Shown here piece by piece: positions 23,577-47,264 of a stretch of DNA of 64,000 nucleotides. How positions within the stretch are numbered: position 1 is the stretch's first letter; every line of letters begins with the position of its first letter. Origin of the DNA: an uncultured Actinomycetes bacterium (GTDB taxonomy: Bacteria > Actinomycetota > UBA4738 > HRBIN12); assembly GCA_963826185.1 (NCBI GenBank), contig CAWGVY010000002.1:18705-82704 (forward strand), given 5' to 3'. The position numbers and the translations under genes were made by a program. The notes beneath the pieces were generated by a model that saw nothing but the letters and a program-made list of their open reading frames with translations, did not search any database and was not told where the DNA came from.

Positions 23577-23653
23577 GGGGGTGTAGCTCAGCCCGGTAGA
23601 GCGCTGCCTTCGCACGGCAGAGGCCAGGGGTTCAAGTCCCCTCACCTCCACCA
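23577..23653 (+). tRNA. tRNA-Ala (anticodon CGC), CCA encoded
   Basis: Folded by hand. Acceptor GGGGGTG/CACCTCC with the G3:U70 Ala identity pair, D-stem GCTC/GAGC, anticodon stem CTGCC/GGCAG with loop TTCGCAC, T-arm AGGGG-TTCAAGT-CCCCT, 3' ACCA. Confidence 0.95.
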
Positions 23654-24198: not shown

Positions 24199-24208
24199 CC
24201 TTCCCCGC

Positions 24209-25484: not shown

Positions 25485-26753
25485 ATGCTCCGCGGCATGT
25501 CTCCCGCGCCAGCAGATCGCACCGTCGTCCGTGCCGGCCGCCTGATCGACGTCGAGGCAGGTGAGGTCCTCACCGACCAAGCGATCGCGATCGAAGGGGA
25601 CCGGATCGCGTCCGTCGGATCCTTCGCGGATCCGGTGGACGATGCGACGCTGATCGATCTGTCTTCGTGCACGGTGCTGCCCGGCCTCATGGACATGCAC
25701 GCGCACATGGTGGGCAACGTGGAGGGGAGCGAGACCTACGCCGCCCTGGCGATGCGCAGTGGAGCCCAGGAGGCGATGACGGGCGTGCGCAACGCGCGGG
25801 ACACCGTGATGGCAGGGTTCACCACGGTGCGCGACATCGGGACGTTCCGGGCGTTCGTGGATCTGGCGCTGCGCGATGCGATCGATGCGGGCTGGACGCC
25901 GGGACCCAGGATGTTGTGCGCCGGCCCCTTCGTCACGTCTTCGCAGGGGGGCGGCGATATCCCGGGCCTCGCCGTGGACGTCGACGAGCGGCTGCCCAGG
26001 GATCTTCGTTTCGGTGTCGCGAACTCCGCGGACGAGGTCCGTGCGGTCGTGCGCGAGATCCTGCACCGCGGCGCGGGATTCATCAAGGTGATCGCCACCG
26101 GCGCGGTCCTCACCGAAGGCACCACGCCCGGTGCCCCTGAGTTCAGCGAAGACGAGATCCGCGCCGCGGTGGAGGAGGCGTCGTACTACCACGCCCACGT
26201 GGCGGCGCACGCGCACGGCGCCGAAGGGATCAAACGGGCCGTCCGGGCCGGCGTGCGTTCGATCGAGCATGGGTCGTTGATGGACGACGAGGCGATCGCG
26301 TTGATGCTCGAGCACGGGACCTACCTGGTCGCCGACATCTACAACGGCGACTGGATCAACGAGATCGGCGGTCGGGATGGGTGGTCGCCCAACTCCCTGC
26401 GGAAGAACCGCGAGACGACCGATGCCCAGCGCGAGGGGTTCGCGAAGGCGCTGGCGGCCGGGGTGACCATCGCTTACGGCACCGACTCCGGCGTGTATCC
26501 GCACCGATTCGTAGGCCGGCAGTTCGCCTACATGGTGCGCCACGGGATGACGACGATGCAGGCGATCCAAAGTGCCACGACCGTGAGCGCCGAACTGATG
26601 GGCTGGCAGGCAGACGTGGGCGCCCTGTCGCCGGGACGGTACGCGGACCTGGTGGCCGTGGACGGAGATCCGCTCGAGGACATCGGGCTATTGGAGGAGG
26701 TCACCTTCGTGATGAAGGGCGGCACCGTGGTGCGCTCAACTGTAGACTGTTGA
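25485..26753 (+). CDS. Amidohydrolase-family metal-dependent hydrolase
   Basis: ORF 25485..26753(+): LPGLMDMHAHM, AHAHG, SIEHG, YGTDSG metal-ligand motifs. Confidence 0.8.
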   Translation: MLRGMSPAPADRTVVRAGRLIDVEAGEVLTDQAIAIEGDRIASVGSFADPVDDATLIDLSSCTVLPGLMDMHAHMVGNVEGSETYAALAMRSGAQEAMTGVRNARDTVMAGFTTVRDIGTFRAFVDLALRDAIDAGWTPGPRMLCAGPFVTSSQGGGDIPGLAVDVDERLPRDLRFGVANSADEVRAVVREILHRGAGFIKVIATGAVLTEGTTPGAPEFSEDEIRAAVEEASYYHAHVAAHAHGAEGIKRAVRAGVRSIEHGSLMDDEAIALMLEHGTYLVADIYNGDWINEIGGRDGWSPNSLRKNRETTDAQREGFAKALAAGVTIAYGTDSGVYPHRFVGRQFAYMVRHGMTTMQAIQSATTVSAELMGWQADVGALSPGRYADLVAVDGDPLEDIGLLEEVTFVMKGGTVVRSTVDC

Positions 26754-26756
26754 CAC
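26736..26756 (+). promoter_or_regulatory. Candidate GntR-type operator A: TCAACTGTAGACTGTTGACAC
   Basis: Two ACTGT repeats plus TTGACA. Overlaps the amidohydrolase stop and lies 2 nt before the TTG start at 26758. Shares ACTGTYGAC with sites at 32092, 39952 and (degenerate) 43055. Confidence 0.4.
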
Positions 26757-26757
26757 T

Positions 26758-28353
26758 TTGACCGGGACCTACGACGCGATCGTGGTCGGTGGCGGCCACA
26801 ACGGGCTCGTCGCCGCCTTCTATCTGTCGCGCGCGGGTCTTCGAACGGTGGTCCTGGAACGTCGGCCGTTCGTGGGTGGCGCCTGCAACACCGAGGAGTT
26901 CGCCCCGGGGTTCCGGGCCTCGACCGGGGCTTACGTTCTGTCGATGCTACGCGCGTCCATCTGGCGAGACATGCGCTTGGTGGAGCGCGGCATCGTGGTC
27001 GATCAGGCGGGGCCATCGCTCAACCTGACTCCGGATGGAGCCCGATACGAGCTGGGCGACGATATGGCCGCCAACGTATCGGAGACTGCGCGTTTCTCGC
27101 CGAAGGACGCCCGCGCGTTTCCGGTGTTCGAGCAGGATCTGGCCGAGCTGGCCAAGGCCGTGCTGCCGTCGTTCGAGTGGACGGCTCCCGATCCCCGGAT
27201 GCTGAACCCCCAGCACCTTCGCGACCTCTCGAAGTGGGGGCGGATCGGCTGGAAGCACCGCCGGAACCTGCAGGAGCTGGCGTACCTGTTCTCGACCTCA
27301 GCCACGCAGTTCCTGGCCGAACGGTTCGAGGATCCCCACGTCATGGCGGCGCTCGGGTGGCATGCGATCAACGACTCTGTGGCCGGCCCATCCACGCCGG
27401 GAACGGCGTACGTGCTGCTGCATGACCATGCCAGCGAGGAGACCGGTGGTGGCGTCCGTCAGTGGGGGTTCGTCCGTGGAGGCATGGGTCGCGTCACCGC
27501 GACGATGGCCGAGGCGGCCCGGGAAGAAGGGGTCGAGATCCGCTGCGAAGCGGAGGTGGAGCGGGTCCTATCCCGCGGAGGCGCGGCCATCGGCGTGCGA
27601 CTGGCGAGCGGGGAGGAGCTGCGCGCGCGTCGCATCCTGTCGAACGCGGATCCGAAGCGGACGTTCCTACGGCTGTGTGATCCCGCGGACCTCGCACCCG
27701 ACTTCACGGCGAAGATCCGCGCATACCGATGCCAGGGGACCAGCATGAAGATCAACCTGGCACTATCCGAGCTCCCGATGGTGCAGGGTCTCCCCGAGGG
27801 CGGTCCGCAGCGTTACCACACGGGGATCATGGAGCTGAACCCATTCATCCCCGACATGGACTTCCAGCAGGCGCAGGCCGTACAGGGGATCGCGGCGGAC
27901 CCGGCGCACATCGAACTCTGCTTCCCCACGGTCCACGACCCGAGCCTGGCGCCTGAGGGTAGGCACATCATGACGATCGACGTGAACTCCCAGCCCTACG
28001 GGCTGCGTGATGACTGGGACCAGGTGAAGGAGGCGCGGGCCGACCGAGCCGTGGACCAGATCGCTGAGTCCTTCCCCAAGCTCCCGGATCTCATCGAGCA
28101 CCGGCAGGTCCTGACCCCGTTGGACATGGAACGCGTGATGGGACTCACCGGGGGCCATGCCCTACACGGCGACATGGCGCCGGACCAACTCCTCTTCCTG
28201 CGCCCCGTGCGCGGATGGGCCGACTACCGGACGCCCATCCGCGGGCTCTACCTGTGTGGAGCGGGGACGCATCCAGGCGGCGGGGTGACCGGCGCGAACG
28301 GTCGCAATGCAGCGCGCGAGGTGCTGCGCGACGCGCGGAAGTCTCGTAAGTGA
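26758..28353 (+). CDS. FAD-dependent oxidoreductase, phytoene-desaturase (CrtI/COG1233) family
   Basis: ORF 26758..28353(+): YDAIVVGGGHNGLVAAFYLSRAG dinucleotide fold and C-terminal GLYLCGAGTHPGGGV. Confidence 0.8.
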   Translation: MTGTYDAIVVGGGHNGLVAAFYLSRAGLRTVVLERRPFVGGACNTEEFAPGFRASTGAYVLSMLRASIWRDMRLVERGIVVDQAGPSLNLTPDGARYELGDDMAANVSETARFSPKDARAFPVFEQDLAELAKAVLPSFEWTAPDPRMLNPQHLRDLSKWGRIGWKHRRNLQELAYLFSTSATQFLAERFEDPHVMAALGWHAINDSVAGPSTPGTAYVLLHDHASEETGGGVRQWGFVRGGMGRVTATMAEAAREEGVEIRCEAEVERVLSRGGAAIGVRLASGEELRARRILSNADPKRTFLRLCDPADLAPDFTAKIRAYRCQGTSMKINLALSELPMVQGLPEGGPQRYHTGIMELNPFIPDMDFQQAQAVQGIAADPAHIELCFPTVHDPSLAPEGRHIMTIDVNSQPYGLRDDWDQVKEARADRAVDQIAESFPKLPDLIEHRQVLTPLDMERVMGLTGGHALHGDMAPDQLLFLRPVRGWADYRTPIRGLYLCGAGTHPGGGVTGANGRNAAREVLRDARKSRK

Positions 28354-28399
28354 TGGCACCGACGATGGTGGGCTCGGTCCCACCGGAAAGGGGTAGCGC

Positions 28400-29866
28400 A
28401 TGAGCCGCAACGCCCGACGATCCGATCTCTCGAGGCGCCAGTTCCTGAAGGCCGGCGCCGCCGGCACCGCGGCGGGCGCGGTGGCGCTCGGTGTCCCGAC
28501 GCTGGCCAGTGCCGCGCCGAAGCCGAAGATCCGCGGGCCCAAGCCTCGGACGGCGGGATTGATCACGGCTGGGCCGGAGATCGGTCTGCCGCCCGGGTTC
28601 AGCTACACCGCCTTCGGTCAGTTCGGCTCCGCCATGTCAGACGGATTCATCACGCCGCCGATCCACGACGGCATGGGTGTGTTCGACGCCGGCGGCGGGA
28701 CCTACCGGATCGTGCGCAACCACGAGCTGGGCGAGGGCAACGACATCGGTCCCGGACGCCCAACGGGTCTGAAGTCCACCGCGTGGGATCCCAAAGGCCG
28801 AGGGTGCACCACCACGATGACCGTTGACAACGACGGGAACCTGTTGGAGAGCTTCATCTCGCTCAACGGCACCGACACGAACTGTTCGGGCTCGCCGACC
28901 CCGTGGGACACCTGGCTGACCTGCGAGGAGACGACCGCCGGCGTGAAGTCCGGGCTGCAGAAGCCTCACGGCTACATCTTCGAGGTGGATGCCTTCGCCG
29001 ACGAGCCGGTGCTGACGAACCCGCACAAGGCGATGGGACGCTTCCTGCACGAGGCGGCCGCGGTCGATCCCGATACCGGCGTTGTCTACATGACCGAGGA
29101 CAACGGGCCCGATGGGTTCTACCGGTTCGTCCCCAAGACCTTCGGCAAGCTCAACAAGGGAACGGTTCAGATCCTGAAAGTGAAGGGGCAGCCCGGGTAC
29201 AACACGGTGATCGGACAGACGGTCGGTGAGGTCTTGCCAGCGAAGTGGGCGACGATCACCGATCCGGATCCGGCAGACGCCGAGGACCATCCCGACGCCG
29301 TCTATCGGGAGGGCCGTAGCAAGGGAGCCGCGCGGTTCCTGGGTGGGGAAGGCTGTACCTTCCGCGCCAACGGTGGTACCGACCCCGGCTCGTGTGTCTT
29401 CAACTCCTCCGACGGAGGTGATGCGGAACTCGGCCAGATCTGGCAGTACACGCCCACGAAGAACGTCGGAGATCTGGACGAGGATGGCGAGCTCGTCCTC
29501 CTCTATGAATCGGTCGACGAGGCTGCGATGCAGGGGCCCGACAACCTGTGCACCAGTCCCGGTGGAGCCATCATCGTGGCCGAGGACGGCGACGCCACGA
29601 ACTTCCTACGGGCGCTCCTTCCCGACAACACGCTGATCACGATCGGCGAGAACCTGGTGTCGGTGCGGATCGCCTACATCGATTCCTCAGGGATCGTGTT
29701 CGATCCCGACACGCCGTTCGACGACTACAACTTCACGACCGGCAACGGGATGTCGGAGTTCGCGGGATGCCGCTTCAGCCCCGACGGGAAGTTCCTGTTC
29801 GTGAACATCCAGGTGCCCGGGATCACGTGCGCGATCACGGGCCCGTGGGGCAGTATCGGACTATGA
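28400..29866 (+). CDS. Tat-exported DUF839/PhoX-family beta-propeller protein
   Basis: ORF 28400..29866(+): twin-arginine signal SRRQFLKAGAAG, then NHE, TPWDTWLTCEE, FSPDGKFLFVNIQ motifs. Confidence 0.75.
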   Translation: MSRNARRSDLSRRQFLKAGAAGTAAGAVALGVPTLASAAPKPKIRGPKPRTAGLITAGPEIGLPPGFSYTAFGQFGSAMSDGFITPPIHDGMGVFDAGGGTYRIVRNHELGEGNDIGPGRPTGLKSTAWDPKGRGCTTTMTVDNDGNLLESFISLNGTDTNCSGSPTPWDTWLTCEETTAGVKSGLQKPHGYIFEVDAFADEPVLTNPHKAMGRFLHEAAAVDPDTGVVYMTEDNGPDGFYRFVPKTFGKLNKGTVQILKVKGQPGYNTVIGQTVGEVLPAKWATITDPDPADAEDHPDAVYREGRSKGAARFLGGEGCTFRANGGTDPGSCVFNSSDGGDAELGQIWQYTPTKNVGDLDEDGELVLLYESVDEAAMQGPDNLCTSPGGAIIVAEDGDATNFLRALLPDNTLITIGENLVSVRIAYIDSSGIVFDPDTPFDDYNFTTGNGMSEFAGCRFSPDGKFLFVNIQVPGITCAITGPWGSIGL

Positions 29867-31222
29867 ACGAAGGGTCCGGCCCCGGCGGCGAGATCGAGGT
29901 GCCACGCATCCTGGCCGCGCCGCCGGGGCCGCGCACCCGCGACACCCTGGAGCGGCTGGGCAAGGTGCTGTACCGGGGCCTGGCCGACGAGCTCGGACCG
30001 TTCGTGATCCGTCGCAAGTCGGGGTGGGAGATCGAAGACGTGGACGGCAACGTCTACCTCGACTTCATCAGCGCCATGGCCTCGGTTCCGTTGGGAGCCG
30101 CGCCGAGAGGACATCACGGAGGCGGCGGTGGAGGCGCTCCGCCGCTACGGCAACGAGGACACCCACTACTTCGCGAACGAGTACGTGCTGCCGCTCGTGG
30201 AGAAGCTGCTGGCCGTGGCGCCGGGACAGCTCGCCCGTGTGGACATCGCCTTGAACGGCACGGAGGCCGTGGAGACCGCGATCCGCTTCATGCGCCGCGC
30301 CACCGGCCGGCCGATCGTGATCGGCTTCATGGGTGGCTACCACGGAGAGGCCGGGACCGCGGGCGCGGCCGGCGCAGAGGACGCGGAGATCTCCTACGGG
30401 TACCGGGCCCTGATGCCGGGCTTCGTGCACGTTCCCTACCCTAACCCGTACCGCACGCCGTTCCGGGCCCGACCCGGCGGCTGCGGCGACGGGACCGTGG
30501 ACTACCTCCGCGATCACGTGCTGCACCATGTCGTCGATCCCCGCGAAGTGGCGGGCTTCGTGATCGAACCGGTGATGGGTTCGGGCGGTTGCGTCGCGCC
30601 GCCCGAGGCGTTCTGGCGGGCGCTTACCGAGCTCTGCCACGAACAGGATCTCCTGCTGTGTGCCGACGAGGTGAAGACGGGGTTCGGCCGAACGGGACAC
30701 CTGTTCGCGGTCGAGCGCTGGGGGGTCGAGCCGGACCTGATGGCGTTGGGCAAGGCGATGGGTGGCGGCGTGATGCCGATCGGCGCCGTCCTGGGGACCG
30801 AACGCGCGATGGACTTCGGCGATCTCTCCACCGGTTCCACCTGGTCGTGGCTCCCCGCAGCCTGCGCCGCCGCGATCGAGACCCTCGACGTCTTCGAGCG
30901 CGAGCCGATCCTGGAGCACGTGCGGGCGCTGGAGGAGGAGGGCCGCACCTTGTTGGAGCCGTTGCGCGACCGCTACGCACCGGTGGGTGACGTCCGCGTG
31001 GTGGGCTGCTTCATGGCGATCGAGTTCGTGAAGGACCGCGAGACGAAGGAGCGCGATCCCGAGCTCGGCGAACGCGTCGCACGGGCCTGCATCCAACGCG
31101 GGTTGCTGGTCGACCTCACCTCGACATCCCTGCACCTGCAGCCCTCCCTCGTGACGCCCGTCGAGGTGCTGAGGCAGGGGGTGGCCATCTTGGACGACGC
31201 GATCGCCGAGGTCCTGGGGTGA
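29863..31222 (+). pseudogene. Class-III (omega) aminotransferase, one frameshift
   Basis: ATG 29863 (ATGA overlap with the phoX-like stop). The N-terminal 78 aa are in the frame of ORF 29548..30444 (...YLDFISAMASVPLG). The rest is in ORF 30128..31222 (...REDITEAAVEALRRYG...ADEVKTGFGRTG...). Frame change at about 30094-30104. Confidence 0.8.
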
Positions 31223-32103
31223 TCGAGCCGGAGGCGTTCGAGGAGCTGGCGGGTGGGCTGAACCATCCCGAGGGCGTCGCGTGGAACCCGGTCGACGGGC
31301 GCGTCTACGCGGGGGGCGAGGGCGGCGAGATCTACGCGGTCACCTTGGACGGGACGGTGCAGCAGGTGGCGTCGAGCGGTGGGTCGATGCTGGGCGTGGC
31401 CGTCGACGGTCAGGGGCGCGTGTACGCATGCGATGCGGGGCGAGGGGAGATCGTGCGTTGGGACCCGTCATCGTCGGCGTTGACGACCTATGCGCGCGGG
31501 GTTGCCGGCGAGGACATGGACTGCCCCAACGTGGCGGCCTTCGGGCCCGACGGCGCTCTGTACGTGACCTGCTCGGGCGAGGAAGGGCGGCCCGAGATCC
31601 TTCGGGTCCCCGCGGGCGGCCAGGTGGAACGGTGGGCCACGTCGGTGCCGGGCTATCCCAACGGCGCACTCGTGAGCCCCGACGGGGCTTGGCTCGTGGT
31701 GGTCGAAGCCCATGAGCAGCGCCTGGTCCGGATCCCGATCCTCAGCGATGGCGCGGCCGGGAAACCGGAGCTGGTGGCGGAGCTTCCCGATACGGACCCC
31801 GACGGCGTGGCTCTGGACGCCGAGGGACACTTCTGGGTCACGCTCTATCGACCCGACGGGCTGGCTCGGATCGGACCCCACGGCGAGGTCAGGATCGTGG
31901 TGGACGATCACCTCGCATCCACGCTCGATGCGCCCACCAACATCGCCTGGGTCGGCGAGGTGCTCGATCGCACGGTGGTCGCCAACGTGGGAGATACCTT
32001 CCTGGCCATCGCGGACCTGGGGGTCGAGGGGGCAGCCGCTGCACCACCCCATCCTCGACTGACGAAACGTCGTCCTGTGGCGGCCCGGACGGACTGTCGG
32101 TAG
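31219..32103 (+). CDS. SMP-30/gluconolactonase/LRE-family protein
   Basis: ORF 31219..32103(+), GTGA overlap with the upstream gene. Six-bladed propeller repeats (HPEGVAW, PNG, PDGVALD). Confidence 0.75.
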   Translation: MIEPEAFEELAGGLNHPEGVAWNPVDGRVYAGGEGGEIYAVTLDGTVQQVASSGGSMLGVAVDGQGRVYACDAGRGEIVRWDPSSSALTTYARGVAGEDMDCPNVAAFGPDGALYVTCSGEEGRPEILRVPAGGQVERWATSVPGYPNGALVSPDGAWLVVVEAHEQRLVRIPILSDGAAGKPELVAELPDTDPDGVALDAEGHFWVTLYRPDGLARIGPHGEVRIVVDDHLASTLDAPTNIAWVGEVLDRTVVANVGDTFLAIADLGVEGAAAAPPHPRLTKRRPVAARTDCR

Positions 32104-32115
32104 ACTGTCGACAGT
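32092..32115 (+). promoter_or_regulatory. Candidate GntR-type operator B: GACTGTCG-GTA-GACTGTCGACAGT
   Basis: GACTGTCG repeated at an 11-nt period. The second copy is part of the perfect palindrome ACTGTCGACAGT (32104-32115), which overlaps the GTG start (32114) of the grdE-like gene. Confidence 0.45.
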
Positions 32116-33372
32116 GTCATCCACGCTCGCTGATCTCGAGATCGCGACGTTCGCGGTCGACGAGGTCGTCGAGGGGGACCAGACAGGGCGGGACGGACGC
32201 ACCTTGGTGCTGTCGCTCCCGCAGCTCGCGGTCGGAGCCGGGGAGCCGGCGCTGGCGGAGGCCACGGTCGAGGTCATCCGTCCCGGCGATCCCGTTCGCA
32301 TCGCCAACGTCCTCGACGCCGTGTTGCCCGACGCCCGCGTCGACGATCCTTCGGCCACCTTCCCGGGCGTCGTCGGCTCCGCCGAGGCCGTGGTGGGTGG
32401 CCGGCTCCACCGGCTGACCGGCGTGACGGTGTTGCCCGTATGCGACTGGGCTGCCGCCGGATACGCGGACGCCGCGGAACTCCCCGACAGCTTCGTGGAC
32501 ATGGCAGGACCCGGCGCCGATCGGAGCCCGTTCGGCGCCACGACGAACCTGGTGGTGCGATGCGTCCCGCAACCGGGCGTCTCCGCCGCCGACGCCGATG
32601 CGGCGGTCAGACGGGCGTGCCTACGGCTCGCCAGTGACCTGGCCCTGAGCACGGCTGAGGACGAACCCGATGCCGTGAGGTCGATCGGGCCTGTGGCCTA
32701 CCCGCGATCCTTCCCTGGCCTCGATCGCGGTGATCCTTCAGGTCGCCTCGGAAGGCCCGTTGGTCGACACGTTCTGGCGCGGCTCGCCGATGCGCCCCCT
32801 GACGCCGAGGATCGCCGATCATCGCGAGGTGCTGGGAGGGTGTCTCACGAACGGCGCATACGACTGGCCGGGGGTGCGCAACGTGACCGCGCACTACCAA
32901 GACGGAGCGTTGCTCGTGCGGTGCTGCTCGAGGCCGACGGTGACCGTCTCCGCTACGCGGGCCTGGTGCTGACGCCCGGCTACCTGGACGACGCGGCCGA
33001 GAAGCGTCGGGCGGCGGAGCGCGCCGCCACGCTCGCGGACAGCTTGGGGCCGATGGTGTCGTGTGCACGACCTTCTCCTCCGGCAACTCACACACCGACA
33101 CGATGCTCACGGTCCGGGCGTGCGAAGCGATGCGGCCTGCGGACCGTGGCGCTCGTCGCCGAGACGAACGGTGGGCTCACCGATCACGTTCCCGAGGCCG
33201 ACTGCCTGGTGAGCACGGGGAACGAGGACGAGCTGGTGGAGCCGTGGAGCCCCGCTCGCGTGATCGGTGCGCAGGACGGTGCGCGAGCGGGCGAGCGGGT
33301 CCCGACCGTGCACTACCTGGCGGGCTGCACCGCAGATGGGCGACGCGCGATGGACGGCGGTGCCGGCATTGA
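32114..33372 (+). pseudogene. grdE: Glycine/sarcosine/betaine-reductase component B alpha/beta proprotein (GrdE/PrdA family), at least 4 frameshifts
   Basis: N-terminus in ORF 32114.. (LEIATFAVDEV...VEVIRPGDPVRIANVLDAV...FPGVVG). It continues in ORF 32730..32972 (IAVILQVASEGPLVDT...AHYQDGALL), then back to the first frame (LLEADGDRLRYAGLVLTPG). Next comes ORF 33061.. (ADGVVCTTFSSGNSHTDTMLTVRACEAM), then the first frame again (GLRTVALVAETNGG...). Shifts at about 32695-32725, 32920, 33046-33049 (G4 run) and 33133. The 3' end and stop are uncertain. Confidence 0.75.
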
Positions 33373-34659: not shown

Positions 34660-35973
34660 GCGTGCGGCGCGCCGCCGTGACCGCGGCATCCTTCGTCCTG
34701 GAGCACGTTCCCGACCTGGTGCGGTATGGGTCCAAGCCGGCCAGGGAGCGAGGCGCAGCTGCCCGAGCTCCTGAGATCCCTGCGCTCGTTCGATGACGCG
34801 GTCGCCTATCCGCCGAACCAGGTGTTCATCGGCAACCTTGCACCCCAGGATCTTTGGGATCGCCCCAGGGACTGGTGGGAACACCCCCTCGAAGGCGCCG
34901 CCCCGACCGGCTCGACGGGCGAGGTGATGGATCCTGACGCCTTCTACGACCTGATGCGGGAGGTCGATCGGTTCGATCTGGTCACGTCCGAGTTCGTTCC
35001 CGAGTCCCGCGCGCTGCCCCTCTACCGCGGTACCGCGATCGTGGGAGCGATCGCCCCCGAGCATGAGCAGGACGAGTCGTTGAGCGCCTCCGTGTTGCTC
35101 GAGAACCTCGCGATCAAGGCGAGCGGCGTCCACGCCCTGCGCGATCTGCTCCAGCGAACGCAGATCGACCCCGCATCGATCACCCACGCGATCGGCTGTG
35201 GCGAAGAGGCCGTCGGCGACCGATACCAGCGCGGAGGCGGCAACATGGCCAAGGCGATCGCGGAGGAATGTGGTCTGCTGCGCGCTGCCGCGATCGATGT
35301 CAAGTCGTTCTGTGCGGCACCCGTTCACGCGATGGTCCTGGCCGCCGCCCTGATCGGGTCGGGCATCGAGGAGCGCGTGGTGGTGGTGGCGGGGGGCTCG
35401 CTGGGCAAGCTCGGGATGAAGTTCGAGGGAGCGCTCTCCAAGGGCTTCCCGATCCTGGAAGACGTACTGGCGGGGATGGCGATCCTCCTGGAGCCGGCGG
35501 ACGGCTCCAACGGACCCGTCCTGCGCACCGATGCGGTTGGCAGGATGCCGGTGCAGGCCGGCAACGCTCCCCAGGCTCAGCTGGAAGCGCTGGTGGGCTG
35601 CCCCCTCGACGCCCTGGGGATCACGGTCGGCGACGTGGGGACGTACGCCACCGAGATCCACAACCCGGAGATCACGCAACCGCAGGGCGGTGGCGACGTT
35701 GCGGACCGCAACTACAAGATGTTGGCCGGCCTGGGCGTGGTGCGCGGAGAGCTCGACCGGACCGACATCGCGGGGTTCGCGCGGGCACACGGGATGCCCG
35801 GGTTCGCGCCGACCCAAGGACACATCGCCAGCGCCGTTCCCTGGCTACCGCACGCGCTCGCCCGCATGCGGGCCGGTGAACTGCATCGAACGATGCTGAT
35901 CGCGAAAGGGTCGCTGTTCCTGGGACGCCTCACGCGTCTGTGGGACGGCGTGTCCGTGACGCTCGAGACCTGA
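34656..35973 (+). pseudogene. grdC: Glycine-reductase component C beta subunit (GrdC, thiolase-fold), one frameshift
   Basis: GTG 34656 (GTGA overlap with the grdB stop) gives VSVRRAAVTAASFVLEHVPDLVRYGSKPAR. Frame change at about 34745-34750 into ORF 34726..35973 (...LRSFDDAVAYPPNQVFIGNL...GGGNMAKA...). Confidence 0.8.
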
Positions 35974-35982
35974 GGAGGATCG

Positions 35983-36366
35983 ATGATCGATGCCACCGTG
36001 GACACCTTCCAGGAGCTCGCCGGCACCGGCGAGGTCTTGGTGGACATCTGGGGCCCGCAGTGCCAGCCGTGCCTCGCCCTGATGCCGGCGGTTGAGGCCC
36101 TGGCGGAGACCTACGGCGATCGCGTGCGGTTCGTGAAGGTGAACGCGCCGGAGAACCGGAGGATCTGCCGGGACCTGCGGGTGGCCGGCCTTCCCGCCTA
36201 CGTGACCCTGCGCGACGGGGTCGAGGTCGAGCGACTCACGAGCGCCGGGACCACGCCCAGGCAGATCGAGGACGCCATCGTCCGACTCGTGAACGGAGCG
36301 CCGGCGGTCGGTCCGCCGGTGCCGGAACACCTGCGCGAGCAGGCCGAGACCGCCGAAGGGGGGTGA
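35983..36366 (+). CDS. Thioredoxin-like protein with atypical active site WGPQCQPC
   Basis: ORF 35983..36366(+): thioredoxin fold with a CQPC dithiol, located between grdC and grdA as in clostridial grd operons. Confidence 0.8.
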   Translation: MIDATVDTFQELAGTGEVLVDIWGPQCQPCLALMPAVEALAETYGDRVRFVKVNAPENRRICRDLRVAGLPAYVTLRDGVEVERLTSAGTTPRQIEDAIVRLVNGAPAVGPPVPEHLREQAETAEGG

Positions 36367-36369
36367 CCC

Positions 36370-36828
36370 ATGGATCTACAGGGCAAGAAGGTGATCGCTC
36401 TCGGAGAGCGGGACAGCGTTCCCGGTGAGGCGATCGCCGAGGTGGCGCGTTCCGCCGGTGCCGAGGTGATCGAGGTGCGAACGGAGTGCTTCGTCTGAAC
36501 GGCGTCCGGTGCCATGGATCCGGACAACCAGGCGCTGATCAAACGGATCGTCGATGAGATCGGCAGCGACGACGTCGTGGTGATGCTCGGAGCCGCCGAC
36601 GCGGAGGCGGTCGAGGTCGCCGTCGAGACCGTCCGAGATGGCGATCCCGCCTGGGTGGGTCCATTGGCCGGGGTCCAGTTGGGACTCCCCGTGCTGCACG
36701 TGTTCGAGGACGAGGTGAAACGTCAGGCCGACGACGGCGTCTACGAGGCGCAGATCGGCTTCTTCGAGATGACCCTGGACGTCGACCAGGTGAAGGAGGC
36801 GATGAAGCGCGCCCGCGGCGAGACCTGA
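36370..36828 (+). CDS. grdA: Glycine/sarcosine/betaine-reductase selenoprotein A (Sec-UGA at 36496-36498)
   Basis: ATG 36370 gives MDLQGKKVIALGERDSVPGEAIAEVARSAGAEVIEVRTECFV-U-TASGAMDPDNQALIKRIVDE...GDPAWVGPLAGVQLGLPVLHVFE. The TGA is in frame with ORF 36514..36828. CFVUTA(A/S)GAMD is the GrdA active-site signature. Confidence 0.9.
36504..36525 (+). promoter_or_regulatory. Candidate SECIS hairpin for grdA
   Basis: GTCCGG-TGCCATGGAT-CCGGAC stem-loop beginning 5 nt after UGA 36496-36498. Confidence 0.45.
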
Positions 36829-36832
36829 GCCG

Positions 36833-37906
36833 TTACCGCCGCTTCGCGACCTCGAACTGGGCGGTCGTGGGAGCGGCGAGCGTCTGGTCGCCCGAATCCA
36901 ACGTGAAGTCGAACGATCCCATCGGGCCGGTGAGCGTCCAGGTCGTTCGCTTGCAGTGCGGTCCGGTCGCGACGACCTTCGCGCCCTTCGTGTACGTCAT
37001 CGTCCCACCCGGTTGCACGAAGGGTTGTCCGATGTCGCTCAGGATCTCCACCTGCGTAGGCGTCGCCGTGATCACCTCGGGATCGCCGAACGCGAACAGC
37101 AGGTGCGTGACGACCGCGACACCCACCTGCTCCTGCTCCTGGAGCACCAGCGCGTTCTCCTCCCTCGAAGAGAACGCGTCGATGATGTACCCGCCCATGC
37201 CGACCGGCTGCAGGCCGTCGAACGTGCGGCCCACGTCGCAGGTCGTGCCGAATGGGCACGGGTTGTCGGTGTACTTGTCACGCTCGATCGTCGCACGGAC
37301 GTGCGAGATGTTGACGTCCGAGGGCATCTGTGGATCGGAGTAGCCGGGGAAGAAGGTCATGGAGCCACGGAGCATGCCGCGACGCCGGCTGCGGGTCGTG
37401 AGGAGCGCGCCGGTCTTGGGACAACGGTCCTTCGATCGCGTGATCGGACCCAGACCTTCCAAGTCCATGAAGATGGCGCCGTAGCCGGGGATCAAGCCGG
37501 TGTCCAGCCCCACGTGACGCAACTGCGCGTCGAACTGCAGGGATCCCGCCGGCAGGTCGAACTCCCAGATGTGGACCTGCTCGGGGTGGGTTCCAGACGG
37601 GGCGGCGCGGTCCGCGATCACGCGCAGGTTCGGGTCCGAGGGGGGCGAGCCCGGTCCCGGACGGTACTGAGAGGCTTCAAGCGACCAGAAGTAGGGGGAC
37701 CCGTCCACCTTGAAGGGCGCCGTGGTGAGGGTGGTGTAGGAGGCTCCTCCCGCACGCCGATGCGGGGCTGACGGATGGATGAGCCGATCCATCCGCCGGG
37801 GCAGGTGGTGGGCCGCGGCGGCCGACGCTGCCTCGAACGAGGTCAGCATCAGGGCGCCCACGAGCACCAGGGCGGTCGATCGGATCCGGCGAGAAGCGGT
37901 CAGCAC
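36833..37906 (-). CDS. Secreted hypothetical protein (357 aa)
   Basis: GTG 37906 is preceded by GGAGGG. Signal-like VLTASRRIRSTALVLVGALMLTSFEAASAAAA. This is the C-terminal part of track ORF 36833..38845(-). No family recognised. Confidence 0.6.
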   Translation of the reverse strand: MLTASRRIRSTALVLVGALMLTSFEAASAAAAHHLPRRMDRLIHPSAPHRRAGGASYTTLTTAPFKVDGSPYFWSLEASQYRPGPGSPPSDPNLRVIADRAAPSGTHPEQVHIWEFDLPAGSLQFDAQLRHVGLDTGLIPGYGAIFMDLEGLGPITRSKDRCPKTGALLTTRSRRRGMLRGSMTFFPGYSDPQMPSDVNISHVRATIERDKYTDNPCPFGTTCDVGRTFDGLQPVGMGGYIIDAFSSREENALVLQEQEQVGVAVVTHLLFAFGDPEVITATPTQVEILSDIGQPFVQPGGTMTYTKGAKVVATGPHCKRTTWTLTGPMGSFDFTLDSGDQTLAAPTTAQFEVAKRR

Positions 37907-37974
37907 GAGGTCCCTCCACGTTCGACTCGACGATGAGGAAGGTATCGGCCGTGGGGGGGCGTTTCCACAACCCT

Positions 37975-38797
37975 CTAGCCCGTGAGGGGGCGATCGGGCG
38001 GCGAAGGAGGTGCGTCGGCGTCGTCGTACCAGCTGCCGCCGCCCAGCTCGCCCCCGTCCACGATCAGCGTTTGGGCGCTGATGAAACGAGCATCGTCGCT
38101 CGCGAGGAACAGCACCGCCATCGCCTGATCCCGGGGGGTCCCCGCGTGCCGCAACGGGATCCGGGAGAGATAGCGAGTGACCAGATCGCGTTCGCGGGGA
38201 TCGGCGGCCATCTCCGCTTCGGCCTCCGGGGTGATCGTCTCCCCCGGAGCGACGCAGTTCGCGCGGATCCCGTGGTGGCCCATCTCGTGGGCCACGGCCT
38301 TCGTTGAGCGCGACCAACGCCGCTTTCGACGCGTTGTAGATCGATTCGGGTGATTCGTTCTGGAAGGCGTTCGCGCTGGCGATGTTGACGATCGAGCCGG
38401 GGGAACCGCGCTCGATCAGGTGCCGGCAGACGTCCTGCATCAACAGCAGTGGGGCTCCCACGTTGACGGCGAAGCACGCGTCGAGATCTTCGGTCGTGAC
38501 GTCGAGCACCGGGCCGTCGGGCTGGGCGCCGGCGTTGTTGACCAGCACGTCGACCCCTCCTTGGGTCTCGATCGCGGCCGGGACGATCGTCCGCACCTGG
38601 GTCGGGTCCGCCAGGTCGGTGGCGTGGGTCCGCAGCCGACCAGCGTGGGGATGCGTGGCCGCCATGACCTCGAGCCCCTCCTCCAGGACGTCGGTGGCCA
38701 GCACGCTGGCGCCCTCATCCAGGAAGGCGTCCACGATCCCACGTCCGATCCCCCGGGCGCCTCCGGTCACGATCACGCGTCGTCCCTCGAACCTCAT
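37975..38797 (-). pseudogene. Short-chain dehydrogenase/reductase (SDR), one frameshift
   Basis: ATG 38797 gives MRFEGRRVIVTGGARGIGRGI...NNAG...YNASKAALVAL in the frame of ORF 36833..38845. It continues as TKAVAHEMGHHGIRANCVAPG...IVDGG in ORF 37975..38295. Shift at about 38303-38308. Confidence 0.8.
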
Positions 38798-38804
38798 CCT
38801 TCGT

Positions 38805-39933
38805 TCACCCCTCCTGGCCGGCTCGGACGACCCCGAGCGTGACATCCTGCAGCGCTTCGGGATCCAGCTCGACCCCGATTCCCGCGCCGTCCGGTGCGTC
38901 GATGCATCCGTCCTCTCCGGTCCGCAGGGTGCGCGTCACCCCGTATTCGAACGGTTCCGGCGGCACCGCCTGCTCGAAGAAGGACGTCCGTTCGAAGGCC
39001 AGCGCGGCGTGCAGGTTGGCGGCTTGGATCACGGTGTGGCCGTAGCTGGTGAGCTCGACCGGCAGGCCGGCTTCGGCCGCCACCTCCATCAGGGACGACG
39101 TGGGGGTCAGGCCACCCACGAACGACACGTCAAATCGGACGGCGTCCCAGGGGGGATCGCGGAGGATGTCGCGCAACAACCGCGGGTCCCAGACCGCGTC
39201 GCCGGCGGGAAGGATCGGTACGTCCTGCACGGCTCGGCCGAAGCGCTCGGTACCCGGGAAGATCGAAGTCGGGGAGGGGGGCCTCGAACCAGCGAGCCCC
39301 GATCTCCGCGCAGACCCGCGCCACGCCGAGGGCACCGTCGGCGTCGTAGCGGCCCTCAGCATCGTGCATCACCGTCAGGGAGCCGAACGCGGATCGGATC
39401 GCCCGCAGCAGGGCGGCGTCGCGATCGGGGTCGCCCCACGCGTGCACCTTGATCGCCCCGAACCCAGCCTGGACCTGATCCTCGATCGCGCTCAGGTAGT
39501 CCGTCTCAGCGTCGAAGGTGGGGATCGAGGCGTAGGAGGGCAGGGCGTCCGAGCGACCGGGGCCCAGGATCCGTCGCAACGGCTCGCCCGCGCGGCGGGC
39601 GGCCAGATCCCACAACGCGATGTCCACGGTGGACCGGACGGCGGGCGGGAACGGCGAGGTCCCATCCTCGCTGAGCATGGCCGCCACCCGGTTCCGGTCC
39701 TCGGCGTCGATCCCGATCAGCGGCGGGATCAGGGTCCTCAGGGTCTCCAGCGGCGCTCGATCCCAGTCCCCGTAGGTATCGGAGTCGTAGGCGCCGATGC
39801 CCGCGACACCGTCCTCATCGGTGATGCGCACGAGCGTCGTCGTCGTGAAGACCTCCGGTTGGAACGAGGTGTAGCGGAAGCGTTCCACGGGCGGCCCGAT
39901 CGCTCGTGCCTCCACGTCCCCGATCCTCGACAT
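38805..39933 (-). pseudogene. Enolase-superfamily enzyme (mandelate racemase/muconate lactonizing family), one frameshift
   Basis: N-terminus in ORF 39130..39933(-) (...GIGAYDS...IKVHAWGDP...MHDAEGRYD...WFEAPLP). C-terminus in ORF 38805..39362(-) (VPILPAGD...VRFDVSFVGGLT...). Shift at about 39234-39245. Confidence 0.75.
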
Positions 39934-39951
39934 CGCCCCTCCGGGTCATCG

Positions 39952-39969
39952 GTCAACAGTCGACAGTCG
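39952..39969. promoter_or_regulatory. Candidate GntR-type operator C: GTCAACAGTCGACAGTCG (reverse complement CGACTGTCGACTGTTGAC)
   Basis: Lies in the 53-nt divergent region between the enolase-SDR operon (start 39933) and the gntR gene (start 39987). Contains two ACTGTYGAC units on the minus strand. Confidence 0.5.
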
Positions 39970-39986
39970 CATGCTAGGCTACGCCG

Positions 39987-40673
39987 GTGACGGATGCGGC
40001 AACCTCCACGCCCCTGGCGCCGCTCGCGGCACCTCGATCGTTGGCCGAGGATGCAGCCGACCGCATCCGCGAGCAGATCCTGTCGGGGGGGTTCCATCAA
40101 GGCGAACACCTGGTGGAGGCCAAGCTCGCAGAGCAGTTGAACATCAGCCGTGGGCCCGTCCGAGAAGCCTTCAAACTCCTCCGCGCCGAGGGCCTCCTCA
40201 ACGAAGAGCCGCGCCGCGGCACGTTCGTGGTCAGCCTCACGGCGGACGACGTGCGTGAGATCTACGGGCTGCGCGCCGCGCTGGAGAGCCGCGCCGCGAG
40301 GCTGCTGGCCCGCGGTCGAGACCCGGGGGCGATCGCACGGCTCCGCGGGCTGGTGGACCAGATCGACGCCGCTGTGGCCACCGGCGACGCGGTGGCGGTC
40401 TCCAGAGCCGACCTCGCGTTCCATGAGGGCCTGTGCGAGCTCTGCGGGAACGCGCGGATCCTGGAGGTGTTCGACCGCTACGTCCCGATGCTCCGCGCCC
40501 TCCTCCGGCTGGACGAGCGGGTCCTGCGTTCGTTGGACGAGGTGTCGATGCAACATCGGCCGTTCGTCGAGGCGATCGAGGACGGCGACGAGGATCTTGC
40601 ATCCCGTCTGCTGGCCGAACACGCCGAGCACGCGGGCGAGCTGATCGCCGGCGTCGTGGCCACGAACGGATAG
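39987..40673 (+). CDS. GntR-family transcriptional regulator, FadR subfamily (FCD domain)
   Basis: ORF 39987..40673(+): wHTH LVEAKLAEQLNISRGPVREAFKLLRAEGLL plus a helical FCD effector domain (DLAFHEGL...HRPFVEAI). Confidence 0.85.
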   Translation: MTDAATSTPLAPLAAPRSLAEDAADRIREQILSGGFHQGEHLVEAKLAEQLNISRGPVREAFKLLRAEGLLNEEPRRGTFVVSLTADDVREIYGLRAALESRAARLLARGRDPGAIARLRGLVDQIDAAVATGDAVAVSRADLAFHEGLCELCGNARILEVFDRYVPMLRALLRLDERVLRSLDEVSMQHRPFVEAIEDGDEDLASRLLAEHAEHAGELIAGVVATNG

Positions 40674-40718
40674 CGCCGCCCACTCACGTTCCGCCCGCCG
40701 CCTGCCGATACGTTCAGG

Positions 40719-41597
40719 ATGATGACGCGAACCCGTTCGTTCCGGCTGTTGTCCGCCGTGCTCGTGTCCGCCTCGCTCCTGGCGGCCTGCGGCTCCGATG
40801 CACCCTCGCACGCGACCGGCGGGGTCGGGTCGGACGGGAGCGTCGACCCGGTGGCGATGATCCAGGCCGCTTCGGACAAGGTCCTGCAGGCCAAGGCCCT
40901 CCACATGACGTTCGGGATGGAGATCTCGGCGGCGGGTCAGACGATCTCGGGATCGGGAGAGGGCGACGTCTCGCTCGAGGGCCTGCAGCAGCACATGACC
41001 TTCCACTTCGACCGCATGGCAGGGCTGAGCGACGGGATGGACATGGAGTTGATCCTCGACGGCCACGTGATGTACATGCGGTCCTCGATGTTCTCCCAGC
41101 TCCCCGGCCTCGGTACCGACTGGGTCAGCATGGATCTGAACGACACCGTGCCGGGGTTCGAGCGCCTCGCGTCCTTCGGCACCGGCCAGAACGATCCCTC
41201 AGCGGCGTTCGGCTATCTACGCGGGGTCGAGGACGCCGAGGTGGTGGGCACCGAAGAGATCCACGGTGTGGAGACGACGCACTACCGAGGCACGCTGAGT
41301 CTCGAGGACGCGCTCGGCCAACTCCCCGAGGACATGCAAGCTGATTTCAGCCAGGTGATGGCCCAGTTCCGCCAGCAGTTCGGCACGGTCACGATGCCGT
41401 TCGACGTGTGGGTGGACGCGGACGGACAGCTGCGCCGCATGACCTACCGCATGGAGACCGACGGAGGTTCGATGGGGGCGGCCGGAGCGTTCTCGATGAC
41501 GATGACGATCGACATCACTCGCTACGCCGATCACCTGACGCTGGACCTCCCGGCCGCCGGCGACGTCACCGACGTCAAGGACCTGTCCTTCGGCTAG
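40719..41597 (+). CDS. Lipoprotein, LppX/LprG/LolA-like fold suspected
   Basis: ORF 40719..41597(+): lipobox LLAAC, and a repetitive beta-rich body with Met-rich segments. Confidence 0.55.
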   Translation: MMTRTRSFRLLSAVLVSASLLAACGSDAPSHATGGVGSDGSVDPVAMIQAASDKVLQAKALHMTFGMEISAAGQTISGSGEGDVSLEGLQQHMTFHFDRMAGLSDGMDMELILDGHVMYMRSSMFSQLPGLGTDWVSMDLNDTVPGFERLASFGTGQNDPSAAFGYLRGVEDAEVVGTEEIHGVETTHYRGTLSLEDALGQLPEDMQADFSQVMAQFRQQFGTVTMPFDVWVDADGQLRRMTYRMETDGGSMGAAGAFSMTMTIDITRYADHLTLDLPAAGDVTDVKDLSFG

Positions 41598-41613
41598 ACC
41601 TCAGCGGTGTCGC

Positions 41614-43008
41614 TCACGTGTTGGGGATGAAGACCTTCAGCAATTGACCTCCTTCGCCACGTGCCGAATCCGGTCGCAGACCGGGACCGGGCTGGCGGAC
41701 ATGGGTTCCATGAGACTCGACGTCGAGCAGCCACCATCCGCTGCCGAAGAACGCGCTGGCATCGATCACGCCCGAGGTCTCCCACACGCCCCTTCCGGCC
41801 AGATCGATCAGCCACTTGAACGGATCCACGCGCGCGGCCGCCGTGAGCGATCCGCTGCTGAGGTCGTAGACGAGCACACGCGCCCATCCCGATTCCGTGT
41901 TGTTGCGATCCTCCTGGATCACCAGGGCCTCGTCGCTGATGCCCAGGTTGTCCGGGTTCACCATGGCGTCGCCGGCGTCGCCATCTAGCACGACCTCGAG
42001 CGATGCCTTCCGCGGCTTCGTCGGGTCGACCGTGAGCCGGTAGATCCTGCCGTGGAGCGTCTCGCGTCCGTAGGAGCCGGTGTCGGAGAAGTACACGACG
42101 CCGGGGTCGTTCGGGTCCGCCGTGGCGTCTTCGATGCGCACGAAGGCGAAGGCGCCGACGTCGTCGCTGGCGGCGTTCAGGGCCGCCGGGCTCAGGGAAC
42201 CGGCGTGCGGGATCGTGACGAAATGGCCCTTCATGACGTCACCGAGCTGGATGTCGTCGGTGGAGGGATGTCCGTCGGTGTGACCGTTGGGCACCCAGGC
42301 GCGCAACGATCCGTCGCCGCGGATCAGGTCACCGAAGGTCTGGGAGAAGAAGGCGTACGCCTGCGACTTCCCGGCGTCGCCGTCCTCGGAGACGAACGTC
42401 ACGGCCCGTCGCAAGCCGTCAACGGGCACGACGTTCTCGTGGAACATGTGGCCGAGCCACGGCATCTCCCGGTGCTGACCGCTGATCGCGTTCATCCCCA
42501 CCGCCACCCCGTTGTGCGCCGACGTGGGGGATTCTTCGCCGGTGAAGTACCACGGGGTGCCCGTGTGCAGGGTGAACAGCGTGGACGAGCAGAAGGCCTC
42601 GTAGCCTTCGGAGCCGTCGATGGGATAGGTCGCGGCGTTGACCTCCCCGTTGTTGTCCAGCGTGAGGTGCGAGACGCGGGAGTTGGCCACGTCCCCGTCA
42701 CGCCGAGCGAGCTCGTGGTTCATGAAGAGCTCGATCGTGCTGGCGGAACTCCGGTACGCGCCGAGCCCGTCGGGCACGCCGGTCATCTGATACCCGAAGC
42801 GCTTCCCACCGATGATGTCGCCCGCCGACAGGAGCGGCTGGATCTGGACCCCCGCGGCGACACCCACGATGAAGGGACGGGTGGAGGTGACGAACCCTCG
42901 CGGGGCCACGCCATGGCCCGGCACGCGTGCCGACGCTGAGGGGAGCACCAGCCCCATCACGGCGGCCATGATGCCGACCACGCGTATCGTCCTTCTCGTA
43001 CCCCTCAT
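41614..43008 (-). CDS. Secreted DUF839/PhoX-like beta-propeller protein (second paralog)
   Basis: ATG 43008 within ORF 41614..43275(-): signal MRGTRRTIRVVGIMAAVMGLVLPSASA, then NHE and TPWYFTGEE motifs, with a VYFSDTG segment also read. Confidence 0.65.
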   Translation of the reverse strand: MRGTRRTIRVVGIMAAVMGLVLPSASARVPGHGVAPRGFVTSTRPFIVGVAAGVQIQPLLSAGDIIGGKRFGYQMTGVPDGLGAYRSSASTIELFMNHELARRDGDVANSRVSHLTLDNNGEVNAATYPIDGSEGYEAFCSSTLFTLHTGTPWYFTGEESPTSAHNGVAVGMNAISGQHREMPWLGHMFHENVVPVDGLRRAVTFVSEDGDAGKSQAYAFFSQTFGDLIRGDGSLRAWVPNGHTDGHPSTDDIQLGDVMKGHFVTIPHAGSLSPAALNAASDDVGAFAFVRIEDATADPNDPGVVYFSDTGSYGRETLHGRIYRLTVDPTKPRKASLEVVLDGDAGDAMVNPDNLGISDEALVIQEDRNNTESGWARVLVYDLSSGSLTAAARVDPFKWLIDLAGRGVWETSGVIDASAFFGSGWWLLDVESHGTHVRQPGPGLRPDSARGEGGQLLKVFIPNT

Positions 43009-43054
43009 CGAGAACCCCTTCCGCTCGAACGTGCTCGTGCGGGGGGTAGTGTCG

Positions 43055-43067
43055 GTCAACCGTTGAC
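43055..43067. promoter_or_regulatory. Inverted repeat GTCAAC-C-GTTGAC (candidate operator D), plus an extra GTCAAC at 43091-43096
   Basis: Lies in the divergent region between the DUF839-like gene (start 43008) and the potD-like gene (start 43133). ACCGTTGACA differs by one base from ACTGTTGACA at site A. Confidence 0.4.
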
Positions 43068-43132
43068 AATCTGCAAGTTCGACGGCTACGGTCAACTGGG
43101 CATCCGAGGGGCATGTCCGGCGGGGAGGATCG

Positions 43133-47245: not shown

Positions 47246-47264
47246 AGGAGGAAGGACCGCAACC

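Follow-up and report, generated by a model that had tools for sequence, protein, structure and literature searches.

Do the short repeats found at four operon heads of an uncultured Actinomycetes bacterium belong to a single regulon, and which protein would read them? The question arises from a 64,000-nucleotide (nt) stretch of contig CAWGVY010000002.1 (GenBank assembly GCA_963826185.1), hereafter the window, in which a first-pass annotation had noticed a shared ACTGTYGAC / GTCAAC motif next to a FadR-type GntR gene, and had proposed a regulon linking a grd operon, a transporter and catabolic genes. Comparative genomics of 36 orthologous loci supports this proposal. We consider it likely that the four sites, A to D, are operators of an autoregulated FCD-type GntR repressor, encoded at 39987-40673, that would be released from them by a small molecule.

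The motif does recur at the four heads, but its true unit differs from the one first described. The 13-mer common to the four aligned sites is GTNNAC-N-GTYGAC (GTAGACTGTTGAC in A, GTAGACTGTCGAC in B, GTCAACAGTCGAC in C and GTCAACCGTTGAC in D), that is, two GTNNAC hexamers 7 bp apart, with A as the next base in 4/4 window sites (13-15 bp). Direct reading of the window found all of the originally quoted sequences in place. Site A, TGTAGACTGTTGACA (26741-26755), lies within TCAACTGTAGACTGTTGACAC (26736-26756), which had been put 2 nt before the oxidoreductase start; the gap to the TTG at 26758 is 1 nt. The 15-mer covers the TGA stop of an amidohydrolase gene (26751-26753), and 2 nt separate its end from the TTG. 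Site B, GGTAGACTGTCGACA (32099-32113), within GACTGTCGGTAGACTGTCGACAGT (32092-32115), covers the TAG stop (32101-32103) of a gene for an SMP-30/gluconolactonase-like protein and adjoins the GTG start (32114) of a grdE-like gene, a start that the perfect palindrome ACTGTCGACAGT (32104-32115) overlaps, as reported. A and B both mark heads within a run of genes of one orientation, where the preceding stop codon is 4 nt (A) or 10 nt (B) away.

The two other sites lie between divergent genes. Site C (39945-39965) consists of GGTCAACAGTCGACA (39951-39965) and an upstream half-site, GTCATC (39945-39950), in 7-bp register. The reverse complement of 39952-39969 is CGACTGTCGACTGTTGAC, inside the 53-nt gap between an enolase-superfamily gene (minus strand, start 39933) and the GntR gene (start 39987), in agreement with the earlier description. 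Site D (43054-43074) consists of GGTCAACCGTTGACA (43054-43068) and a third hexamer, ATCTGC (43069-43074), again in 7-bp register, within a 124-nt gap between a minus-strand gene (start 43008) and a potD-like gene (ATG 43133). The 13-mer quoted for this site is present at 43055-43067, as is a GTCAAC at 43091, but the latter falls outside the motif: it overlaps the predicted -10 element and is unconserved in the orthologues.

Counts in the window depend strongly on how the motif is written. ACTGTYGAC gave 5 strand matches against 1.1 expected, a number reached in 1/100 shuffles, and GTCAAC alone was unenriched (30 against 24.8 expected). With 0.40 expected, the core GTNNACNGTYGAC was present at 4 distinct sites, or 6 matches when both strands are counted, a number equalled in 0/100 shuffles. 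Mismatch-relaxed versions were at chance in the window (GACTGTYGAC with 1 mismatch, 9 matches against 13.7 expected; GTMGACTGTYGAC with 2 mismatches, 12 against 9), and the signal therefore resides in the exact GT/AC frame. Shared 9-mers among window segments classed as intergenic, on a gene map that is incomplete outside the focal region, were only G+C-rich words. The 13-mer core pattern had been picked after the sites had been seen, so an independent test was needed, and this was provided by a symmetrised 15-position matrix trained on orthologous sites only. Run across the 64-kb window, the matrix retrieved exactly A-D, at 24.4, 21.7, 23.7 and 22.7 bits, respectively. The next best match reached only 12.7 bits, in line with the earlier remark that the full motif had not been seen in the other intergenic regions inspected, and a match at 39944 (11.6 bits) is site C shifted by 7 bp. 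The weaker look-alike that had been singled out at about 51335-51351 did not hold up, with a score of 3.2 bits in a window where 35 positions score 0 or more.

The 12.7-bit match, GGTCGACAGGTGACC (47114-47128), lies inside the end of an ATP-binding cassette (ABC) transporter ATPase gene, about 150 nt before a second aminotransferase gene; in the orthologous locus L008, the strict pattern occurs at a comparable point (14796). The window match is probably due to chance, although a weak internal site is possible.

Further evidence for the sites comes from their conservation. Loci were gathered with the GntR protein as query, at one genome per species, giving an orthologous set of 36 loci (593 kb; GntR 60-87% identical), all from metagenome-assembled genomes (MAGs) of uncultured Actinomycetota, and a control set of 29 loci (549 kb) around GntR genes 27-41% identical (Arthrobacter, Glutamicibacter and others). 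The pattern GT..AC.GT..AC matched 94 times in the orthologous loci against 7.95 expected from dinucleotide shuffles (maximum 13), and 4 times in the control loci against 4.75 expected, which is chance level. The first-pass annotation had suggested looking for the motif upstream of orthologous operons, and that is where it lies: 87 of the 94 matches fall in the four gene classes of the window. Every orthologous locus (36/36) has a site immediately before its GntR gene, across three different gene neighbourhoods. The PotD-type transporter operon is preceded by a site in 28 loci, the flavin oxidoreductase gene in 12, and grdE in 9. Four of the remaining matches lie before other genes (a second ABC transporter and an alkaline phosphatase in L022; one in L026), and three resemble chance occurrences within genes.

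When the matches were mapped onto homologues of the window genes, the sites were found to travel with their genes through rearrangements. The grdE gene keeps its site behind the SMP-30-like gene, an ABC ATPase gene or another gene alike, and GTAGACTGTCGAC is unchanged at 8/9 orthologous grdE heads regardless of the upstream gene, L022 having GTAGACTGTCAAC; the GACTGTCG upstream of site B is unconserved in the orthologues. Where the string oxidoreductase-aminotransferase-SMP-30-like-SDR-grd is uninterrupted, the site is found at the first gene only, and where potD directly abuts gntR, at gntR only. Judged from these orthologues, A and B behave as independent operon heads. When 7-mers upstream of each gene class were counted blind to the motif, pieces of it emerged as the top over-represented words in all four classes, with GTCGACA in 25/36 gntR upstream regions (1.7 expected) and GTTGACA in 27/32 potD regions (0.6 expected). 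The existence of the sites, their specificity, their conservation across species and their position relative to genes are thus matters of observation, and chance as their origin is excluded by the window counts, the matrix scan and the orthologue and control counts together.

The additional matches in L022 include a double site of three hexamers, GTCTACTGTCGACTGTTGAC (17071-17090), directly before the alkaline phosphatase gene (PF00245), with an AlaX-like gene and an agmatine deiminase-type gene next in line, and a further site (1023-1035) before the second ABC transporter. Given these extra targets, the extent of the regulon varies between species, repeatedly taking in phosphatases.

Alignment of 88 orthologous sites, in which GT and AC were fixed by the search pattern, defined the unit further. 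In the left hexamer, C predominates over A and A over T at position 3, and G over A at position 4; in the right hexamer, C and T are about equally frequent at position 10, and G occupies position 11. An A follows the 13-mer in 81/88 sites. The two hexamers mirror each other in base frequencies (GTCRAC / GTYGAC), and the unit is therefore an inverted repeat around a central base; because GTCGAC is self-complementary, it is also a short array of 7-bp period. Additional hexamers are specific to promoter class: gntR sites have an extra conserved GTC 7 bp upstream (GTCgnn; positions -7 to -5), and potD sites an extra conserved ATCTAC 7 bp downstream, with the consensus GTYRAC-S-GTTGAC-AATCTAC kept in 28 loci. 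Beyond these hexamers the flanks of the orthologous sites are unconserved, while the motif itself is near-invariant.

The first-pass annotation had expected a GT-Nx-AC palindrome, as is typical of GntR-family operators, and the motif, with each hexamer read on its own, fits the family consensus NyGTNxACNy (PMC4494728) with x = 2: GT..AC hexamers with this spacing were present in 92/92 aligned sites, comprising the 4 window sites and the 88 orthologous ones whose dinucleotides were fixed by the pattern. In the FadR subfamily, the GT-AC distance is 3 nt, and 2 nt in the GntR, HpxS, HypR, MdcY, PrpR and UxuR groups (Suvorova et al. 2015, PMC4494728).

The protein presumed to bind A-D is encoded on the plus strand at 39987-40673 and has 228 aa. 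It matches the GntR-type winged helix-turn-helix (wHTH) PF00392 over residues 19-81 (62.1 bits against a cut-off of 27) and the all-helical C-terminal FCD domain of effector binding and oligomerisation, PF07729, over residues 91-214 (95.5 against 24.3), a combination that places it in the FadR subfamily. Its relatives in the PDB are GntR/FCD regulators without exception. The best NCBIfam match is TIGR03338 (PhnR), with 144.8 bits over near-full length, below the cut-off of 271.5; NanR, LldR, CsiR and PdhR follow at 65 bits or less. In an alignment of the window protein with 34 orthologues (35 sequences), conservation on a 0-9 scale is 8.5 for the wHTH and 7.0 for the FCD domain. Four residues, D142, H146, H190 and H212, are each shared by at least 90% of these sequences; we take them for the metal ligands typical of FCD domains. 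From the combined comparisons, we infer that this GntR protein binds A-D, represses from them and responds to an effector.

The position of the sites relative to conserved promoter-like hexamers bears on how such a regulator would act. In the orthologous potD class, the right hexamer with its following A reads TTGACA, followed by N17/18 and TAnnnT, and then by a leader of 35-70 nt with a Shine-Dalgarno sequence. By this consensus, the -35 element of the window potD-type promoter (plus strand) would be the right half of site D plus A, TTGACA (43063-43068), and the -10 element TACGGT (43087-43092), 18 nt after it; a Shine-Dalgarno sequence and the ATG at 43133 follow. In the gntR class, most of the closer orthologues have TGC-TAnnnT about 7 nt past the site and a start codon 6-7 nt later. 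The window counterpart is a putative extended -10, TGC-TAGGCT (TGCTAGGCT; 39972-39980, plus strand), ending 6 nt before the GTG at 39987. A -10 element only 6-7 nt from the start codon implies a leaderless gntR mRNA, and the operator would then cover the -35/spacer region of this promoter. For the divergent unit (enolase-superfamily and SDR genes), a possible -10 is TAGCAT on the other strand (39976-39971), which would put the operator where transcription of that unit starts.

Sites of the grdE class invariably have GTAGAC as the left hexamer and T as the next base, and the resulting TAGACT conforms to a TAnnnT -10 element 7-10 nt before GTG or TTG. The predicted -10 of the grd transcript (TAGACT, 32101-32106, plus strand) would accordingly give a leaderless or near-leaderless message, and a TAGACT also lies within site A at 26743-26748, 9 nt before the TTG. 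Transcription is predicted to start at about 39987 (leaderless gntR), 43099 (potD), 32113 (grdE) and 26755 (oxidoreductase gene). Operators lying over a -35 element, a spacer, or a -10 element with the start site have the geometry of repression by occlusion. Orthologues without the full motif before grdE retain TAsACT or TAAGCT at the same distance, and promoter and operator are therefore separable. Six loci (L006, L010, L015, L019, L024 and L029) have lost the full operator before grdE while keeping TAGACT or TACACT 8-10 nt before TTG (within the 80 nt upstream of grdE). These sequences suggest a conserved internal grdE promoter at which direct control by the regulator was gained or lost in evolution.

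The overlap with -10-like TAGACT and -35-like TTGACA might suggest that the motif serves an alternative sigma factor as part of its promoters and is no operator. This explanation is very improbable, as the placement of the motif varies relative to the start codon and to the other hexamer (-35 in potD, spacer in gntR, -10 in grdE), the motif is two-fold symmetric, and loci that lose it before grdE keep their TAsACT -10. Still harder to credit is that the palindromes act as RNA hairpins, in translation or termination at gene junctions, or that they are chance or mobile repeats. Sites A and B do overlap stop and start codons, and B holds the 12-nt perfect palindrome; however, the four sites fold no better than shuffled sequences (z from +0.33 to +1.55), none has an Rfam match, and C and D lie upstream of the predicted transcription starts. 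Only about 15 bp are common to sites with unrelated flanks, which argues against a mobile element, and chance is ruled out by the shuffles, the matrix scan and the orthologue and control counts.

Repression by the adjacent GntR protein would work as follows. The operator, two GTNNAC hexamers in 7-bp register with, as a rule, an A after them and in some cases a weaker third hexamer in phase, would overlap the -35 TTGACA at potD, the -35/spacer of the leaderless gntR promoter together with the start of the divergent enolase-superfamily/SDR unit, and the TAGACT -10 and transcription start of the grd-like and flavin oxidoreductase operons. The ligand-free dimeric regulator would sit on these sites and block RNA polymerase until a small molecule in the FCD domain released it. 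The effector is probably an imported amine-type substrate or a carboxylate intermediate. Its arrival would turn on uptake, transamination and oxidation, the selenoprotein reductase and the regulator itself together.

Several points weigh against this interpretation. The loci were picked through the presence of the GntR gene, so that the motif without the regulator lies beyond this sampling, and the inner dinucleotides of the 13-mer read AC-N-GT, a polarity that departs from the GT-N3-AC arrangement canonical for FadR. Both points would fit operators belonging to another transcription factor encoded elsewhere, with the adjacent GntR gene merely one of its targets. We regard this as unlikely, because a site precedes the GntR gene in every orthologous locus in all three neighbourhoods, the hexamers obey the GntR-family GT-N2-AC rule, the motif is missing around non-orthologous GntR genes, strong conservation of the wHTH accompanies that of the motif, and no other regulator gene is conserved across the orthologous loci. 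A further point is that the centre of site D lies at about -38 at potD, over the -35 element, a class II geometry compatible with an activator, and FadR itself activates some promoters. Activation by the same GntR at some sites, notably potD, nevertheless seems quite improbable: the potD promoter already has a perfect TTGACA and a TAnnnT at 17-18 nt, which should make activation needless, and the grdE and oxidoreductase sites cover the -10 and start, and the gntR site the spacer, positions that are sensible only for repression.

Of the other points on that side, direct control of grd is not universal, several orthologues being without a grdE site yet with the TAsACT -10. The promoter elements were deduced from consensus hexamers conserved in orthologues. 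An Escherichia coli-consensus scan of 26000-44000 returned 0 promoters and 2 terminator-like hairpins, a result that is uninformative at 68% G+C, and among public sequencing runs only three, all of soil-metagenome DNA and none of RNA, contained 5-11% of the sequence words. With these points set against the conservation described above, repression by the adjacent GntR remains our preferred interpretation.

Local autoregulated regulons of FadR-subfamily GntR proteins have been catalogued by the hundred, and the kind of system seen here is already known. The closest comparison is with the GT-N2-AC groups of the FadR subfamily (PMC4494728), which share the wHTH and FCD domains and invariant GT and AC dinucleotides 2 nt apart with T/A flanks (TGTCGACA), as well as a site before the regulator's own gene and near local catabolic or transport operons, and a weaker half-site about 7 nt away. 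Many palindromic sites in that survey, in 13 FadR-subfamily groups, have an additional weaker half-site 7-12 nt away (PMC4494728). Unlike those groups, the window has two full hexamers in a 13-bp GTNNAC-N-GTNNAC instead of one A/T-rich TKGT/ACMA palindrome, whose flanks the motif only partly matches, and the hosts are high-G+C and uncultured.

A second comparison is with NanR of E. coli, an FCD-type GntR repressor with a promoter-overlapping (GGTATA)3 operator that is occupied cooperatively by several dimers (PMC8012715; PDB 6ON4/6WFQ/6WG7). The window sites, too, show 2-3 hexamers in fixed phase, here of 7 bp, two strong and one weak. However, the window regulator is only remotely similar to NanR (E 8e-6; 65 bits), the hexamers here are palindromic or inverted (GTCRAC/GTYGAC), and the weak third hexamer is on differing sides according to the promoter. 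The arrangement would accommodate either one dimer across both hexamers, with centres 7 bp apart, or one dimer per GT-N2-AC hexamer, as in NanR.

The best named family for the regulator is PhnR of the Burkholderia type, associated with phosphonate utilisation (TIGR03338, 144.8 bits against 65 for the next family). Judged by the names of the NCBIfam families TIGR03226, TIGR03255 and TIGR03262, the ABC transporters for 2-aminoethylphosphonate belong to one superfamily with PotD-type importers. Unlike PhnR, however, the window regulator is under the 271.5-bit equivalog cut-off, and no phosphonate-catabolic enzyme was identified among the scanned genes. Our literature search found no relevant report of a PhnR operator.

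The Firmicutes offer a further comparison, on the side of the targets. Their grd operons are controlled, for example, by glycine riboswitches, and share with the window an operon of the GrdE/GrdB/GrdC/Trx/GrdA type. In contrast, an Rfam scan of the window at gathering thresholds found one tRNA only and no riboswitch, and control appears to be exerted through a protein operator at a leaderless promoter. No report of a GntR-controlled grd operon was found in the literature search, nor was a target set combining a Grd-type selenoprotein reductase and a PotD-type importer in any described GntR regulon. What appears to be new, then, is the particular operator, the lineage known from soil MAGs only, and the target set, chiefly because a selenoprotein reductase of the Grd type would be controlled from a leaderless promoter through a protein operator.

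Four target units are predicted from the sites (Pfam and NCBIfam assignments except where stated). The first (26758-32103, plus strand), behind site A, encodes a flavin (CrtI/amine-oxidase type) oxidoreductase, a PhoX-like TAT-secreted protein, a class-III aminotransferase and the SMP-30/gluconolactonase-like protein. The second (32114-36828, plus strand), behind site B, is the grd-like operon, encoding a GrdE-like protein, a GrdB-family selenoprotein, component C beta, thioredoxin and GrdA (36370-36828). The third (37981-39933, minus strand), divergent from gntR, comprises the enolase-superfamily (MR_MLE) and SDR genes, both frameshifted in the window (Pfam; tblastn with intact L017 proteins). 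The fourth (43133-48599, plus strand), behind site D and in an order conserved in orthologues, encodes a PotD/PotF-like binding protein (frameshifted), two permeases (the first frameshifted), an ATPase and a class-III aminotransferase.

In-frame TGA codons interrupt the GrdB-family gene (34387-34389, LTGT*GTGTRCG) and GrdA (36496-36498, ECFV*TASG) at the selenocysteine positions of these families, so that the cluster seems to code for two selenoproteins in a soil actinomycete of 68% G+C. Components of the Grd system passed their NCBIfam cut-offs (TIGR01918, 249 against 65; NF040746, 514 against 450), and NF040748 scored 119.8 on the part after the TGA only. The GrdB- and GrdE-like proteins remained far under the cut-offs of the models specific for glycine, sarcosine or betaine: GrdF, 242 against 800; GrdH, 231 against 775; GrdB, 212 against 602; GrdG, 76 against 780. 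For the transporter components, polyamine PotB/PotC models outscore the 2-aminoethylphosphonate models. Two PhoX-like proteins and class-III aminotransferases with sub-threshold PbfA similarity are among the scanned window genes, and no phosphonatase or phosphonoacetate hydrolase is.

Taken together, these genes permit a more far-reaching suggestion, which we put forward tentatively and consider rather doubtful: the sites may mark an undescribed catabolic module of uncultured soil Actinomycetota. In this module, a PotD-type importer, PhoX-like phosphatases, a flavin oxidoreductase and class-III aminotransferases would join a Grd-type selenoprotein reductase, whose substrate subunit would differ from those of the enzymes for glycine, sarcosine and betaine, in acting on an amine, an N-substituted glycine or an aminophosphonate-like compound. 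This compound would be sensed by the GntR protein, perhaps through a NanR-like multi-dimer array in 7-bp phase whose half-sites would also serve as the -10 element (GTAGACT) or the -35 element (GTTGACA) of leaderless promoters.

The outcome is a precise candidate operator of about 15 bp, open to direct testing, together with its presumed regulator and four target promoters; the cluster to which they belong is known from uncultured soil Actinomycetota only. The operator would bring an ABC importer of amine type, catabolic enzymes and a Grd-like reductase containing selenocysteine under common control. The search for the substrate is narrowed, as the effector of the regulator should be that substrate or an intermediate, and ligand screening needs no culture of the organism, since the gene for the regulator can be made synthetically. 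The value lies in annotation and pathway discovery, with no new principle, the system being of a textbook kind.

Between gntR and the potD operator (40719-43008) lie a lipoprotein-like gene (plus strand) and a gene for a secreted protein of 464 aa (41614-43008, minus strand), both missing there in most orthologues. The latter had been described as a DUF839 gene divergent from potD; it is divergent from potD across site D, but it has no Pfam or NCBIfam match, and its product is 25% identical to the PhoX/DUF839-like protein encoded at 28400. It is a distant relative of that PhoX-like protein and possibly a further target. Homologues of the gene hold the same divergent position in L025, L027 and L029, and lie elsewhere in L004, L005, L017 and L034.

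The frameshifts in the window, located by comparison with intact L017 proteins, fall in the PotD-like gene (43537-44253, at least 2), the first permease gene (44597-44848, 2), the enolase-superfamily gene (39238-39278, 1) and the SDR gene (38300-38361, 1), and the class-III aminotransferase at 30128 is without its N-terminus. Similar fragmentation was seen in the orthologous MAG loci L005, L008, L020, L029, L030 and L032. Long-read indel errors are a more likely explanation of these frameshifts than pseudogenes.

Upstream of site A, the amidohydrolase gene (25485-26753) passes the NCBIfam cut-off for the Caulobacter-type Xaa-Pro dipeptidase (504.7 against 500) and is preceded by an Orn/DAP/Arg decarboxylase-family gene (24098-25456). 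There is no motif upstream of either gene in the window. In L027 and L025, too, homologues adjoin the site before the oxidoreductase gene. At 23577-23653 lies a single tRNA-Ala gene (anticodon CGC), and no other RNA gene was detected in the 64 kb.

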